The position numbers and the translations under genes are program-made. The notes beneath the pieces are model-generated. The model made no database searches, had not been told where the DNA came from, and saw only the letters and a list, made by a program, of their open reading frames with translations. Below, piece by piece: positions 1,852-31,805 of a stretch of DNA of 64,000 nucleotides. Origin of the DNA: Actinomycetes bacterium. GTDB lineage: Bacteria > Actinomycetota > Acidimicrobiia > Acidimicrobiales > Microtrichaceae. The stretch's first letter is position 1. Each line of letters starts with the position of its first letter. The stretch spans positions 31,691 through 95,690 of the forward strand of contig JAAEPF010000033.1 in NCBI GenBank assembly GCA_024222295.1, read 5' to 3'.

Positions 1852-2694
1852 TCAGCCGCGTGGAACAAGCGCGAGCTGGCGCGACTGGGCCACGAGTCTG
1901 CCCTCGCTGTCCCAGACCAGGCCGTCCTCCTCGAGGAAGCCACTCGACACGATCCGGGTCGTGAACTCGCAGGCCAGCCAGCCCGGCGCAGGTCGGCAGC
2001 GGACATGGGCGGTGAACTCCAGTGTGGGGACCCAGGCCACGGGCAGGTCGGAGTTGAACACCGTGGGTGGGAACGCGTCGAGCACGCACAGCAGCCCGAG
2101 CGGGTCCACGTGCTCGCCGTCGGGCATTCGGAACCAGCCCCTGACGCGTGGGTCGCCACTGGGACGGCCGTGCCGGAACCCTGCGTCCGCGGGGTGAAGG
2201 CGCATGTCCACCTTGTGCATGAAGTTGGGCCCCTCGCCGCCTTCACCCACCGGCGGGGGAGCGCCGAGGCACTCCTCGACAGGCGGCAGGTCGGGGGGTT
2301 GCGCGTCGACGCGCAGCGGTCCGTCGGCCTCCGAGAGGTCCGCGAAGGACCCCAGCGCGCTCAGCAGGAGCTTGCCGTCACCCGCTCGGAGGTTGGCTGC
2401 GGCGGTCGCGAACCGGCGACCGACGCGCTGCGTGCTCACCTCGATGGTTGTGGGCCCCGGCGTGCCAGGTGAGAGGAAATGCCCGGTGATGCTCACCGGG
2501 TCGGGCCGGTCGAGCTCGATGGCGCACGCCCGGGCCACCGAGGCGAGCAGGTATCCACCGTTGGCGTTGCCGAGGATGTCCCAGCCATCTGCGACCTGCG
2601 AGCCGTAGACCGCTGTTGGCTGTGGATGCGTTGGCGCGGCCCCCTCGCGGCGCGTCACGGCGGTGGCTCGTGTGAACTCTCCTGGGTCGGTCAC
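1852..2694 (-). CDS. TesB-like acyl-CoA thioesterase (double hot-dog)
   Basis: GNANGGYLLASVARA motif plus a second hot-dog half (LLCVLDAFPP...EFTAHV). I prefer GTG 2694 (VTDPGEFTRATAV) over the longest start at 2844. Start is uncertain. Confidence 0.65.
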   Translation of the reverse strand: MTDPGEFTRATAVTRREGAAPTHPQPTAVYGSQVADGWDILGNANGGYLLASVARACAIELDRPDPVSITGHFLSPGTPGPTTIEVSTQRVGRRFATAAANLRAGDGKLLLSALGSFADLSEADGPLRVDAQPPDLPPVEECLGAPPPVGEGGEGPNFMHKVDMRLHPADAGFRHGRPSGDPRVRGWFRMPDGEHVDPLGLLCVLDAFPPTVFNSDLPVAWVPTLEFTAHVRCRPAPGWLACEFTTRIVSSGFLEEDGLVWDSEGRLVAQSRQLALVPRG

Positions 2695-2760
2695 GTCCCG
2701 CAGGGTATTGCGTGCAGCGGGTCGCCCGGAATCACCGCGGTCGGTTGCGCGTAGGATTCC

Positions 2761-3357
2761 TTGCTCGCAGTGGGATGGTTCACTGCCGGCCGGATGGCTC
2801 AGAGCACAAGCGAGGATGGCGATGACATCGGGACCATTTCCCAACCGGGTGACCGAGACGCTCAGTTCCTCACCGGCGATGGCACCGGAGCCAACATGAC
2901 CAGCATCTTCGCTCGGACGTCACCGACCGACGCTGGTATCACCGCTTCCGGTGCTCTCACCGTGGCCGACCAGGAGACCTTCCTCTCGGTCTTCGAGGCC
3001 AATGACAACGACCTGTCGAGGGCTGGTTTCTTCCTGAACCCGCAGGAGTGGGGCGACGTCCGTGGCGAGACCGCTTCGGGCACTGGGGAGTACCTCCTCA
3101 ACTCGACGCCGACCGCTGCGACCGCTCGCTCCATCTTCGGAGTCCCGGTCCACGTCTCGTCGGCCGTGCCCGCAGGAGAGGTCGCACTCGTCGACCTGTC
3201 CCGTGTTTACGTCGGTGTCCGTAAGGACGTCGAGGTCGAGTCGAGTCGTGACTTCCGGTTCTCGAACGACGAGACCGCCATCCTTGGCATCGTCCGTGCT
3301 GACATCGGTGTAGCCGAGGAAGCCTCGGTCGTCTACGACTCGGGTTGGAACGCCTGA
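2761..3357 (+). pseudogene. HK97-family phage major capsid protein, C-terminal fragment only (prophage remnant)
   Basis: FFLNPQEWGDVR...EYLLNS...SIFGVPVHVSSAVPAGEVALVDLSRVYVGVRKDVEVESSRDFRFSNDETAILGIVRADIGV matches the C-terminal half of the HK97 capsid family by recall. At most about 198 codons are open (first ATG 2896), against about 300-400 aa expected. No other phage genes are adjacent. Confidence 0.7.
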
Positions 3358-3767
3358 GTCATCTTCTAAGGCGACACGAGTAGTTCATGCTCGTTGAGCT
3401 ATGGCACCGGGGGTCTGTTTCGCCTCCGCTATTAGCGACGTCGCCTTTAGGTACCGGGCGAGGGCTGCGCCCGTTGAGACGGCCGACCGGGATTGAGTTG
3501 CTCGGTCACCGTCGAAGTACCCCGACGAGTCGGAGGTGGTTGGGATGGGTCCGCCCATCCCGTCACCTCCGGCTCTCTGGTTCTCTCGGGCCGGGTGACG
3601 GCTCCCTCGGACCCTGTAGCTCGTGGCCCCATCCACCGGCTCGTCGTGGTCCAGCACCTCGATCGAGGTTGCCTCCTCCTCGTCGCCACCCGGCCCGGTC
3701 AACTCTCGCCGCACTTCGTCGGCTGCCTCGGCGGCCCAGGGTCCCCAGCTGGACGGGCCGACCGCCT

Positions 3768-4568
3768 TCAGACGGAGACCTGATCTTCGGACAGGGGATG
3801 GCCGGACGGCTCGATCGAGTAGCCGTCATCGCGGGACTTGGATATCGCAATGGCCAGAATTAGGAGGCCGAACAGCGGCTTCGCCAGCACGTCTGCGATC
3901 GAATAGCCCACCTGCCGGGCTACCTCGGCAGTCGCCTCATTGTCGATGACCGAGGGAGCGATATAGGCGAGGGGGTACACACCCCAGGTCAACAGGAGCA
4001 GGAACCGGAGCCCTTCGACGATCTTGCGCACACCAGCGCTCTGCCGATCGAGAGAACGGCCGAGCTCAACAAAGAGCACGTACAGGATGTAAAGGAAGGG
4101 AATCGTGGACAGAACTGCCCACACGGTCCGTGCGGTCGAGTCAGGGTCCGACAGCTCCCCAGGCCACCCGAGAACGATCATTGCGATGGCGGCGATGGTC
4201 AGTCGGATGAGAAGGCTCCGTGTCTTGGCGGGTGCCAGCTTCAACACGACGACTAGTTCCGCAAGCAAGAGCGGAACCGTGAGCAGCCAGTCGACATAGC
4301 GGTACCCCTCGTTGAACGGCTCACCGTCCTGCACGTACTCGCCCCCGACAAATGTGAACGCAGCCGACCAAGAATCGAATATCCGAACGTAGTGGTAGAG
4401 AGCGATCCCGACTACCAGGGTCGACAGTGTGATGGCCATGCGGTGCCAGGGTGCGACCCGATTCCTCACGAGAATGAAGAACACAAAGGCAGCGCCCATG
4501 CAGGCGATTGCGAACGAGAAGCTGTTGTAGACCAAGTTGTATTGGGTTTCTGTCAGTACGAGCTCCAT
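3768..4568 (-). CDS. Microbial rhodopsin, xanthorhodopsin/actinorhodopsin-like light-driven proton pump (DTE motif)
   Basis: 266 aa, 7-TM. RYVDWLLTVPLLLAEL gives D93/T97/E104. Schiff-base Lys K230 and counterion D226 lie in YSIADVLAKPLFG. H59 lies in YHYVR. L101 occupies the spectral-tuning site. SD AAGGAG sits 5 nt upstream of ATG 4568. Near-collinear with the Salinibacter xanthorhodopsin sequence as I recall it. Confidence 0.93.
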   Translation of the reverse strand: MELVLTETQYNLVYNSFSFAIACMGAAFVFFILVRNRVAPWHRMAITLSTLVVGIALYHYVRIFDSWSAAFTFVGGEYVQDGEPFNEGYRYVDWLLTVPLLLAELVVVLKLAPAKTRSLLIRLTIAAIAMIVLGWPGELSDPDSTARTVWAVLSTIPFLYILYVLFVELGRSLDRQSAGVRKIVEGLRFLLLLTWGVYPLAYIAPSVIDNEATAEVARQVGYSIADVLAKPLFGLLILAIAISKSRDDGYSIEPSGHPLSEDQVSV

Positions 4569-4825
4569 TGCTGCTCCTTTAGTTTCGTGCCCACGCCGAC
4601 TCGTGTGTCACACCTATTCCTTCGATCTCATCAGCAATATGGATGCGGTTCCACATGCCGGTGCAGGTATGTGTACGAGCTTCACTCTTCTCGTCGTCCA
4701 CCGTGTCGGGCGTCGGCGACGGGGGTACCGGATAGCGGAAGGCCGGTCCGAAGTTCAACGACCACCGCCTCCCTGAGCGCCCCTGCCTCCCCGCTTTCGC
4801 ACACGCCCTGAGTATCGGCGTCGCT

Positions 4826-5428
4826 TCAGATGAAGATGTCGACGTCGATGAACGGGTCGTCTGCGTAGGAGGCCGCCCAGAGTGGCCCGACGTCAGTCGC
4901 TGGATCGCTGATGGCAGCCCCGTTCACGAAGACAGTGTCGGTGAAGTAAGGCTCGAACGGCGGGGGTTCAACTTGGGCCTCGATCTGGACCACAGTGCTG
5001 CGTACGCCGCTAGTGCTGGGGTCCAGCTGGAGGAACGCCTCCAGGCCCTGGTCAGCTCTCCACACGAAGATCGAGCCTTCAGCGGTTTTGACTCCGGCGG
5101 CGTTGCCAACGATGACTGGGTCGGAGGCGCCTACGTGAGTAGTTGAGCCGAACTCACCGAACTCAGGAGCCGTAAGACCCAAGGGGTACTGAACAAGAAC
5201 CGCTGTGTCACCCGCCGAGTGGACCCCATCACCATTGGTGTCCATCAGTCTTGCGATCAGCACGTCGGACCCCGTCGGGTCGTAGCCATCGACGCCGTCG
5301 AGGTTGGAGTAAGCGACAGCCAGCATCTCGGGCTCGGCCGGTGGCCCGTCTGCGGGCGGACCGACACAACCTGCAGCAACCAACGTCAAGGCTACAGACG
5401 CTGCCACAGCAGCGAAGGTCTTCTTCAT
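4826..5428 (-). CDS. Lipoprotein of unknown function
   Basis: Signal peptide plus lipobox (LTLVAAGC). DTNGDGVHSAGD is a Ca-binding-like loop. No family recognised. Confidence 0.65.
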   Translation of the reverse strand: MKKTFAAVAASVALTLVAAGCVGPPADGPPAEPEMLAVAYSNLDGVDGYDPTGSDVLIARLMDTNGDGVHSAGDTAVLVQYPLGLTAPEFGEFGSTTHVGASDPVIVGNAAGVKTAEGSIFVWRADQGLEAFLQLDPSTSGVRSTVVQIEAQVEPPPFEPYFTDTVFVNGAAISDPATDVGPLWAASYADDPFIDVDIFI

Positions 5429-5590
5429 CGTGGTCTCCCTCCAAGGCTTCCTCGAGTGAGAACACGATGACCATGGTTGCGTTGTACGGAACTATGCGAG
5501 GTTGAACAACTAACCGAATACTGGGCTCCGTCGGTCGTGTTCCGTTCCCTGACACGGTCGAGGGAGTCTTCTTCGTTCTATGGTGCCTCG

Positions 5591-6526
5591 ATGTTCTCGA
5601 ATCGTGCCACTGACCTCATGGGCGTGGAATACCCGATCCTTCAAGCTCCTATGGGCTGGATCGCTCGGTCCGAGCTTGCCTCCGCAGTCTGCGAAGCCGG
5701 AGCGATGGGTTGTATCGAGACGTCCTCGGGCGAACTCGACGTCATCCAAGAGGAGATTCGGAAGATGCGGGACCTCACCGACAAGCCGTTCTCTGTCAAC
5801 ATCGCCCAGGCCTTTGTGAGCGATCCTGCGATCGTCGACTTCGTGATCGAGCAGGGAGTGCGCTTCGTGACCACCTCGGCGGGCAGCCCGATGAAGTACA
5901 CGGCGCAGCTCAAGGAAGCCGGCCTCACTGTGTTCCACGTGGTGCCGACCCTGCGGGCGGCCCACAAGGCGGTCGAGGCCGGTGTCGACGGGCTGATCGT
6001 GGAAGGTGGAGAGGGTGGTGGATTCAAGAACCCGCGGCCCGTGTCGTCGATGGTGCTGCTGCCTCTCGTGGTGCAGTCGGTCGACGTGCCGGTGATCGCG
6101 GCCGGTGGTTTCCTCGACGGCCCGACCATGGCGGCCGCGCTGGCGCTGGGAGCCGAAGGCATCCAGCTCGGTACACGCATGGTGTCAGCCGCCGAGTCGC
6201 CGGTGCACGACAACTGGAAGAAGTCGATCCTCGACGCGGCCGAGACCGACACGGTGTTTCTCAACTCACACACGTCACCCGCCTTGCGGGCGCTGCGGAC
6301 CGGCCGGACATCGGCGCTCGAGTTCGACCGCGAGAGCAACGCGATGGCGGCGTTCAACGTCAAGGACCTCTACTTCGGCGGCGACATGGAGTCGGGCGTT
6401 GCATTGTCGGGCCAGGTCGCAGGCCGCATCGACGAGGTGAAGCCGGTCGCGGAGATCATCGACGAGTGCGTCAACGGCTGCCTCGACACGATCGAGACAA
6501 TGGCCGGCCAGTACGGGCGCAGCTGA
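5591..6526 (+). CDS. Nitronate monooxygenase (NMO/2-nitropropane dioxygenase family, FMN TIM barrel)
   Basis: MFSNRATDLMGVEYPILQAPMGWI, GGEGGGF and PVIAAGGF motifs. ATG 5591 chosen over the longer ORF start at 5477. Confidence 0.8.
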   Translation: MFSNRATDLMGVEYPILQAPMGWIARSELASAVCEAGAMGCIETSSGELDVIQEEIRKMRDLTDKPFSVNIAQAFVSDPAIVDFVIEQGVRFVTTSAGSPMKYTAQLKEAGLTVFHVVPTLRAAHKAVEAGVDGLIVEGGEGGGFKNPRPVSSMVLLPLVVQSVDVPVIAAGGFLDGPTMAAALALGAEGIQLGTRMVSAAESPVHDNWKKSILDAAETDTVFLNSHTSPALRALRTGRTSALEFDRESNAMAAFNVKDLYFGGDMESGVALSGQVAGRIDEVKPVAEIIDECVNGCLDTIETMAGQYGRS

Positions 6527-31397: not shown

Positions 31398-31805
31398 TCA
31401 GCCGGAGCCTGGAAGTGAATCAGGTTCGGGGTCAGAGCCCTCGCCGGCGTGTGAGACGCCGGCGACCACGTCGGCGACCCGGCTGCGCACCCAGTCGAGG
31501 GAACCCTTGGGGGACTGGGCGTCGGACCAGCCTGAGAAGGCAGTCTCAACGGCCTCCAGGCCCTGGATAGTGCCCAGGATCTCCACCGTCACCTGATCCG
31601 CGCTGATCTCGGGGACGGCTGTGTCGCCCAGCGGGTCCATCACCAGCGGCTCGCCCGCCTCGCGCATCACGTAGACCTCGCCGGTGTCCTCGACCCAGTT
31701 GAGTTCCCAACGGGTGCCGCCGGAATCGGTCCAGTCCTGGCCGAAGGAGTACTCCCGGGAGCTGCGTCGCTTCGGATTGCCGTCGTAGAAGTGCTCGATG
31801 TCCAT
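31398..31805 (-). CDS. Hypothetical protein
   Basis: 135-aa ORF with good codon bias. No recognised motif. Confidence 0.55.
   Translation of the reverse strand: MDIEHFYDGNPKRRSSREYSFGQDWTDSGGTRWELNWVEDTGEVYVMREAGEPLVMDPLGDTAVPEISADQVTVEILGTIQGLEAVETAFSGWSDAQSPKGSLDWVRSRVADVVAGVSHAGEGSDPEPDSLPGSG

Follow-up and report, generated by a model that had tools for sequence, protein, structure and literature searches.

A rhodopsin-bearing block inserted at the 5′ end of a nitronate monooxygenase gene in an actinobacterial genome

We analysed a 64-kb stretch of DNA (the window), which comprises positions 31691–95690 of contig C33 in an actinobacterial metagenome-assembled genome (MAG). This genome, designated G000, has 3.76 Mb in 115 contigs, 67.8% G+C and a completeness of 97%. 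Near the left end of the window, a rhodopsin gene lies in a patch between an acyl-CoA thioesterase gene and a gene of the nitronate monooxygenase family (NMO). This block is very probably a lateral insertion, because the empty site is found in a relative (G014), a relic of the disrupted gene survives at the left border, the composition is atypical and the gene context is seen nowhere else. An initial annotation had placed the patch at 2695–5590; the comparison with G014 moves its borders to about 2857 and about 5763. The features of the region are listed below, where GC3 is the G+C content at third codon positions.

1852–2694, minus strand: acyl-CoA thioesterase gene, the native left flank (Pfam 4HBT_3 and 4HBT_3C; 70–71% identity to the G014 orthologue; GC3 0.84)
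2695–2815, no strand: native thioesterase–NMO intergenic region leading into the relic (weak alignment with the 102-bp intergenic region of G014; G+C 66%)
2816–2860, plus strand: relic of the native NMO start (roughly the first 15 codons), MAMTSGPFPNRVTET (about 85% nucleotide identity to the G014 NMO start, MASSTFPNRVTDM)
2857–3357, plus strand: 3′ 42% of an HK97-type major capsid gene, the left end of the foreign DNA (PF05065, phrog_10)
3358–3767, no strand: 410-bp spacer between two convergent stop codons (G+C 67%)
3768–4568, minus strand: xanthorhodopsin-type DTE rhodopsin gene, acidirhodopsin/actinorhodopsin-like (PF01036, E = 7.6e-41)
4569–4825, no strand: 257-bp region upstream of the rhodopsin gene, the presumed promoter site
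4826–5428, minus strand: gene for a 200-aa lipoprotein, a passenger gene (signal peptide and lipobox LVAAGC)
5429–5590, no strand: 162-bp divergent intergenic region, probably in the insert (G+C 55.6%)
5591–5763, plus strand: first ~58 codons of the working NMO gene, probably insert-borne (GC3 step and altered identity pattern)
5764–6526, plus strand: remainder of the NMO gene, native (PF03060; 87% identity to G014)

Empty site, target-gene relic and borders of the insert

By orthologue identity, the closest relative in the same family, Ilumatobacteraceae, is G014, which belongs to a sister genus (84% for NMO, 70–71% for the thioesterase and 69% for a glucosaminidase). The thioesterase and NMO genes of G014 are adjacent and divergent, and the distance between their start codons is 102 bp; in G000 this distance is 2896 bp. 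The glucosaminidase gene lies 3′ of NMO in both genomes. The G014 site holds no trace of any part of the insert, in a genome that is only 57% complete, and in seven further genomes with NMO orthologues no rhodopsin, lipoprotein or capsid sequence adjoins NMO. The adjacency of thioesterase and NMO in G014 without the rhodopsin supports the initial proposal of lateral acquisition.

We aligned the G014 site with both borders of the block. This alignment assigns 2695–2815 to the native intergenic region and 2816–2860 to a relic of the native NMO start. The relic DNA reads ATGGCGATGACATCGGGACCATTTCCCAACCGGGTGACCGAGAC where G014 has ATGGCGTCGAGCACATTTCCCAACCGTGTCACCGACAT, and its reading frame terminates at a stop at 2897–2899. 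The NMO homology of the relic ends within 2854–2866, and capsid homology starts at nucleotides 2854–2857, which correspond in the Pfam match to residue 33 of the open reading frame (ORF) 2761–3357. The switch from NMO to capsid falls within 2854–2866; it is abrupt, interrupts both frames and leaves no more than a few bases of ambiguous assignment. Judged from this alignment, the foreign DNA starts at about 2857 and not at 2695, 2695–2856 is native, and 2695–2815 would hold the orphaned native NMO promoter. The left junction, the relic and the insertion itself are evident at the sequence level, and the insertion appears to postdate the split from the G014 lineage.

At the right border, the working NMO gene begins with an ATG at 5591 and has its own version of the N-terminal motif, MFSNRATDLMGVEYP; thus, the genome contains two NMO 5′ ends. 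The protein motif common to the relic and the working copy is FPNRVT(D/E) / FSNRATD. The longest DNA word common to the relic and the working NMO start is 7 nt, and shuffled sequences align locally just as well. Target-site duplication was considered as the source of the two 5′ ends and was rejected. Since the relic, which is under no constraint, is closer to G014 than the working copy is, the pair is not explained by simple duplication and drift.

The working NMO gene also changes in character along its length. Its first 180 nt have a GC3 of 0.63–0.73, against 0.77–0.97 downstream, and the low-G+C trough of the patch continues to about 5850, inside the gene. Residues 61–305 show 87% identity to G014 and 69–73% to six other orthologues. 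Residues 21–60 show 72% identity to G014, 85% to G009 and 80% to G002, and the same residues of G014 itself show 80–85% to other orthologues. Regarding derived sites, one is common to G000 and G014 and 7–8 are found in G000 only within codons 1–60/70, compared with 18 and 9–10 downstream (Fisher p = 0.006–0.016; p = 0.002–0.003 at the nucleotide level), for a cut point that was picked after seeing the data and a short stretch of about 60 codons. From about column 172 of the NMO alignment (window position ~5763) onwards, nucleotide identity to G014 is high again; this homologous border is mapped only to within about 100 nt. From these patterns, the NMO 5′ end at 5591–5763 probably came with the insert, with a crossover near 5763. 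We regard the mosaic signal in NMO as supportive, not conclusive.

The same arrangement is found outside this genome. The block or its junctions are spanned, with the same gene order and at 99.5–100% identity, by seven contigs of separate assemblies, of which five are NCBI metagenome assemblies, one is another MAG and one is a Logan run; an extra JGI contig covers 4198–5411. A second strain lineage among these differs by about 0.4% both within and outside the insert. In this lineage, a 1-nt deletion in the GGGG run at 5018 shifts the frame of the lipoprotein gene at codon 137 and truncates the product to 167 aa. The deletion is present in four assemblies (L120, L122, L126 and L128) and is linked to single-nucleotide polymorphisms (SNPs) at 4726 and 3885. 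The rhodopsin gene has three differences, all synonymous, a result biased by the retrieval of these contigs by exact protein identity. Every assembly examined has the same arrangement, in at least two strain lineages, and the insertion is older than the strain split; the lipoprotein looks dispensable. A chimera of assembly or binning might be suspected in a MAG of 115 contigs. However, the contig that holds the patch is 287 kb long, the junctions recur at near-complete identity in seven separately assembled contigs, and the linked SNPs represent at least two strain lineages, so that such an artefact is scarcely conceivable.

Composition and gene content of the block

The initial annotation had described a lower-G+C patch from hand counts of 34, 34 and 29 G+C per 60 nt within the rhodopsin gene (lines starting at 4081, 4381 and 4501), against 40 and 43 in typical genes (10201 and 21901). 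These counts are exact, and the patch also stands out in the genome-wide statistics. The G+C content of 2695–5590 is 62.05%, compared with the genome mean of 67.8% (z = −3.6 against windows of the same length). This value lies in the lowest 0.55% of 4925 same-length windows of G000, and the patch is the minimum-G+C 2.9-kb stretch within the 64-kb window. The revised insert, 2857–5763, has a G+C content of 61.7%. The tetranucleotide distance of the patch from the genome mean is among the most deviant 1.5% of windows, or 4.9% after the G+C effect is removed. GC3 also deviates: the capsid piece and the rhodopsin both have 0.76 and the lipoprotein has 0.71, compared with 0.84 for both the thioesterase and NMO overall. 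The capsid piece and the lipoprotein are not membrane-spanning, yet their GC3 is low as in the rhodopsin.

The rhodopsin gene itself requires a separate expectation, since rhodopsin genes average 4.4 G+C points under their own flanks (standard deviation 1.6; 29 related loci). We therefore regressed rhodopsin-gene G+C and GC3 on flank G+C for 76 loci from many phyla (r = 0.96). For a genome of 67.8% G+C, the regression predicts a rhodopsin G+C of 63.1% and a GC3 of 0.876; the observed values are 59.4% and 0.763, which depart by z of about −1.8 and −2.2, respectively. The anomalous share of the rhodopsin G+C deficit is about 3.7 of 8.4 points. About half of the deficit is intrinsic to a hydrophobic membrane protein, and the remainder is a real anomaly, which points to a host or donor of about 62–63% G+C. 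A promoter and terminator scan of 2500–5800 gave no signal exceeding shuffles.

All four parts that were initially recognized in the patch (a 5′-truncated capsid gene, 410 bp with no coding appearance, the rhodopsin gene and the lipoprotein gene) are present. In the rhodopsin, the PF01036 match covers profile positions 6–222 of 224, giving a Bac_rhodopsin domain over the full length. The protein aligns full-length with psXR (9WFA), Gloeobacter rhodopsin (6NWD), Kin4B8 and the Salinibacter xanthorhodopsins; its best solved relatives are psXR (E = 1.8e-84) and Gloeobacter rhodopsin. The helix-C motif RYVDWLLTVPLLL.E (Asp-Thr-Glu; RYVDWLLTVPLLLaE) and the helix-G lysine context DVLAKP match these two proteins column for column. 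Ala151 (window 4116–4118) aligns with Gly178 of Gloeobacter rhodopsin, the carotenoid-antenna window residue. Proton-pump activity is known for psXR, Gloeobacter rhodopsin and the other relatives named here. From its motif and these solved and characterized relatives, the protein encoded in G000 is presumed to be a light-driven outward proton pump.

In the tree, the rhodopsin falls inside an Ilumatobacteraceae-dominated clade (SH-aLRT 98), where its nearest relative is that of locus L031 (84% over 255 columns), and it is placed apart from the rhodopsins of three genomes of its own family (G003, G005 and G018). The distribution of rhodopsin in the family is patchy (5 of 25 genomes). Among 5.8 billion proteins, the nearest non-self rhodopsin has 83% identity, and hundreds at 73–83% are labelled Ilumatobacter or Acidimicrobiales. 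A scan of IMG/VR with the rhodopsin found no relative.

These data bear on vertical inheritance, in which the block would be ancestral and lost in G014 and others, and its low G+C would reflect the amino acids of a membrane protein. Such a history would agree with the position of the rhodopsin within the family's own clade, with the finding that rhodopsin genes always lie below their flanks and with the partial G014 genome. It is very improbable nonetheless. The NMO-start relic marks an insertion into a G014-like arrangement, low GC3 extends to the non-membrane parts, and the rhodopsin lies two standard deviations under the regression. In addition, the rhodopsin stands apart from those of the three family members, and its context occurs in no other genome.

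Two side observations concern the rhodopsin clade. Rhodopsins of about 70% identity at L049 (the Pengzhenrongella phosphoraccumulans chromosome) and L052 (a Nocardioides MAG) lie within the Ilumatobacteraceae clade, although their hosts are Actinomycetes of another class; this placement suggests cross-class transfer, or misbinning in the case of the L052 MAG. The rhodopsin match of G018 (IMCC26207; L003/L011, C3:199355–200110) is reported with one in-frame TAG, which is either a true stop at the variable C-terminus or a disruption.

We compared the surroundings of the rhodopsin with those of its relatives. No gene for a thioesterase, a capsid protein, the lipoprotein or NMO lies within 6 kb in any of about 95 rhodopsin loci. 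Half of the close loci (15 of 30) have, directly upstream of the rhodopsin, a divergent gene that encodes HTH_17, B12-binding_2 and B12-binding domains, the CarH/LitR architecture (e.g. L037:5092–5895). WhiB, photolyase-type, lycopene cyclase and Blh genes are also recurrent near related rhodopsins. For example, crtY, blh and a regulator gene lie beside the rhodopsin of the near relative L129 (82%; L129:3159–6822), and two other near relatives (82–83%) have unrelated contexts. The donor arrangement was sought around the three nearest rhodopsins, and three unrelated contexts were found instead. DNA similarity between G000 and related rhodopsin loci extends 12–17 nt upstream of the start codon ATG and, at the other end, breaks off about 45 nt short of the stop. 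From such comparisons, the rhodopsin gene clearly moves as a single unit in its clade.

The B12-type regulator gene is absent at the G000 rhodopsin, and tblastn detected no B12-regulator-like (litR-like) gene in the genome. G000 has no Blh (PF15461) and no phytoene synthase (PF00494), and tblastn of the genome gave no crtY-like (lycopene cyclase) and no blh-like gene. Without these enzymes, G000 lacks the usual pathway to carotenoids and retinal, and its pump would depend on retinal, or a cleavable precursor, supplied from outside. Eight RPE65/carotenoid-oxygenase genes (PF03055) are found in G000, of which three are weaker matches and five are full length (C2:306739–308091; C17:354254–355600; C34:137860–139209; C11:6828–8180; C25:94765–96030). 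It is speculation whether these oxygenases provide a route to retinal from scavenged carotenoids or are unrelated stilbene-type oxygenases. The patch carries the opsin gene alone, with no chromophore or regulator genes; thus, it is not a self-sufficient cassette of opsin and retinal synthesis, and the initial term ‘phototrophy cassette’ says too much.

PF05065 matches the capsid piece at profile positions 111–276 of 280 only, consistent with the 5′ truncation. The piece is assigned to the major head protein family phrog_10 and corresponds to residues ~217–372 of full-length capsids of 377–400 aa. Among 1.84 billion representatives, the 150 best hits nearly all align from query residue 8–9 (nt 2854–2857) onwards. 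The best identity is 43% in this collection, 35% among cultured phages (Idiomarinaceae phage 1N2-2) and 26% in IMG/VR. No relative of the capsid was found elsewhere in G000 or in 79 family genomes, and a word-index search with the capsid ORF returned only itself. The capsid gene had been described as decayed; it is truncated, but its 167 codons are open, with no stop or frameshift. The matches of the individual parts point to an unsampled phage lineage for the capsid and to an unsampled relative within or near Ilumatobacteraceae for the bacterial cargo.

A decayed prophage or integrative element would offer one origin for the capsid piece. Such an element would have entered site-specifically at the NMO 5′ end, bringing a surrogate NMO start and cargo, and later deletions would have spared only the 3′ end of the capsid gene. 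In favour of this, the HK97-type capsid remnant is genuine, and an NMO 5′ end lies at both borders, as the end of the target gene does at attL and attR of gene-restoring elements. However, the whole window contains no tRNA or tmRNA and the patch no integrase-type ORF, and no att-like direct or inverted repeats beyond chance occur around the two borders, in line with the by-eye search of the initial annotation; the borders share a word of at most 7 nt and, as described above, align no better than shuffles. The fusion of the capsid to the relic interrupts the capsid ORF itself, and no second phage gene is recognizable by PHROG. Related capsids are missing from the 79 family genomes and the rest of G000, IMG/VR holds no relative of the rhodopsin, and the cargo resembles chromosomal genes of the family. 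We consider this origin quite improbable. Likewise, the suggestion that a phage delivered or scarred the patch is not upheld, as the capsid piece is the sole phage-like sequence, integrase, att site and tRNA are lacking, and the rest is chromosomal-type Ilumatobacteraceae DNA.

The spacer at 3358–3767 has no match in Pfam, PHROG (all spacer ORFs) or Rfam (E ≤ 1) and no similarity elsewhere in G000 or in the fetched loci. When proteins encoded beside related rhodopsins were searched by tblastn against the two intergenic gaps and the spacer, only noise was returned. The best frame of the spacer is a 109-aa ORF at 3385–3714 on the minus strand (GC3 0.73), which is called as a gene in three other assemblies and has no family match. 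The intergenic region 5429–5590 also has no match elsewhere in G000 or in the fetched loci.

The lipoprotein has no Pfam match. Its core, LAVAYSNLDG.DGYDPTG.DVLI..L.DTN.DG, is found at 53–56% in longer lipoproteins of G014 and G009, and the best non-self matches in the large protein database are at 40–49%. The IMG/VR scan with the lipoprotein gave a match on the signal peptide only. The gene had been considered an orphan; with homologues at 40–56%, it belongs instead to a family confined to Ilumatobacteraceae.

The differences among these parts might indicate two or more events, in which a phage remnant decayed in place upstream of NMO and the rhodopsin gene, alone or together with the lipoprotein gene, came in beside it by an independent insertion. 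The spacer is host-like in G+C (67%) and unlike its neighbours, the GC3 of the lipoprotein is somewhat off that of the rhodopsin and the capsid, and rhodopsin genes of this clade move singly between many contexts. We regard such a history as unlikely, though far from negligible. The G014 site is without a trace of any part, GC3 is depressed similarly in all of the coding parts and the NMO 5′ end, and a one-event model needs only two novel junctions.

Outside the window, three other patches of G000 have 57–60% G+C and strongly deviant tetranucleotides (C51:53651–58000, C23:121801–127600 and C32:76851–79750); these are likely further islands.

Proposed route of integration

We infer a single event, a donor origin of the NMO 5′ end and a mechanism of recombination. 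The best mechanism, in which we have moderate confidence, is homology-facilitated illegitimate recombination, a one-ended homologous route. According to this proposal, a linear piece of about 2.9 kb from a lower-G+C (~62–63%) Ilumatobacteraceae-like bacterium would have entered an ancestor of G000 after the G014 split. The donor piece would have contained, in order, the 3′ part of the capsid gene, the spacer, the rhodopsin gene, the lipoprotein gene, the intergenic region and the 5′ part of NMO. At the right end, the donor NMO 5′ region would have crossed over homologously with the resident NMO near codon 58 (~5763). The left end, broken inside the capsid gene, would have been joined illegitimately to codon 15–16 of the resident NMO (2854–2866). 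The resident NMO promoter and the first 15 codons would thereby have been displaced as a relic, and the working NMO would start with donor sequence and use the donor-derived upstream DNA at 5429–5590. The rhodopsin would have arrived without its usual B12-type regulator. The entry route, whether transformation, transduction or another, cannot be told from the sequence.

Several points weigh against this proposal. First, no donor or donor-like capsid–rhodopsin–lipoprotein–NMO arrangement was found in any collection; the nearest rhodopsin has 83% identity, the nearest lipoprotein 49% and the nearest capsid 43%. We know of no natural transformation or other DNA uptake route for this uncultured lineage. 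Regarding the right border, most of the odd sites in the NMO 5′ end are unique to G000 and not common to a named lineage, and fast evolution of the new NMO N-terminus could mimic the mosaic signal; lower GC3 is frequent at gene starts anyway. Lastly, the spacer is host-like in G+C and the remainder of the insert is not, which may point to more than a single event.

The capsid scrap could also be the trace of a phage–host hybrid. A phage of Ilumatobacteraceae would have mispackaged the rhodopsin, the lipoprotein and the NMO start flanking a prophage, or carried them off by aberrant excision, and transduced them. We consider this decidedly unlikely; if true, the genome would give direct evidence for the spread of rhodopsin phototrophy by transduction among planktonic Actinobacteria.

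Comparison with known systems

Lateral transfer of single rhodopsin genes or of rhodopsin–retinal cassettes is well known among aquatic bacteria, and proteorhodopsin is the classic case. The G000 block resembles these cases in its patchy distribution, varied contexts and atypical composition. It differs in that the empty site, the exact left junction and the target relic survive, and in that no retinal genes came along. Because the empty site, the left junction and the relic survive, the integration route can be reconstructed. The integration event is rarely readable for a rhodopsin transfer; here, the empty site, the relic and an apparently mosaic target gene are all preserved.

Regarding the protein, the rhodopsins of Acidimicrobiales related to actinorhodopsins have been named ‘acidirhodopsins’ (Mizuno et al. 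2015, PMC4337565). The fold, the DTE motif and the Schiff-base lysine context of the G000 protein are as in acidirhodopsins and actinorhodopsins, psXR, Gloeobacter rhodopsin and xanthorhodopsin (3DDL). Compared with these, the G000 locus is unique and is without the B12-binding regulator, blh and crtY genes found beside many of its relatives. Compared with Gloeobacter rhodopsin, the G000 protein has alanine for the carotenoid-window residue G178, and its host is without a carotenoid pathway.

Regarding the mechanism, two known systems are relevant. Specialized transduction and cryptic prophage remnants similarly join a phage structural-gene fragment to bacterial genes; however, G000 has no integrase, att site or further phage gene, and its capsid piece has at most 43% identity to known sequences. 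Experiments have shown homology-facilitated illegitimate recombination in bacteria that are naturally competent and during conjugation in E. coli (PMC3240628). The G000 block shares with it an abrupt unrelated join on one side and foreign DNA behind it, and a homologous crossover in a shared gene is probable on the other side; the G000 case is deduced from a natural genome. The surviving empty site, the relic and the apparently mosaic gene together suggest that the bare opsin gene reached its place, in a host unable to make the chromophore, through homologous recombination at one end and not through a mobile element. This fits the idea that opsins spread easily since a single gene and scavenged retinal suffice. 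In summary, the case adds no new principle and is a worked, well-resolved example of a known phenomenon.

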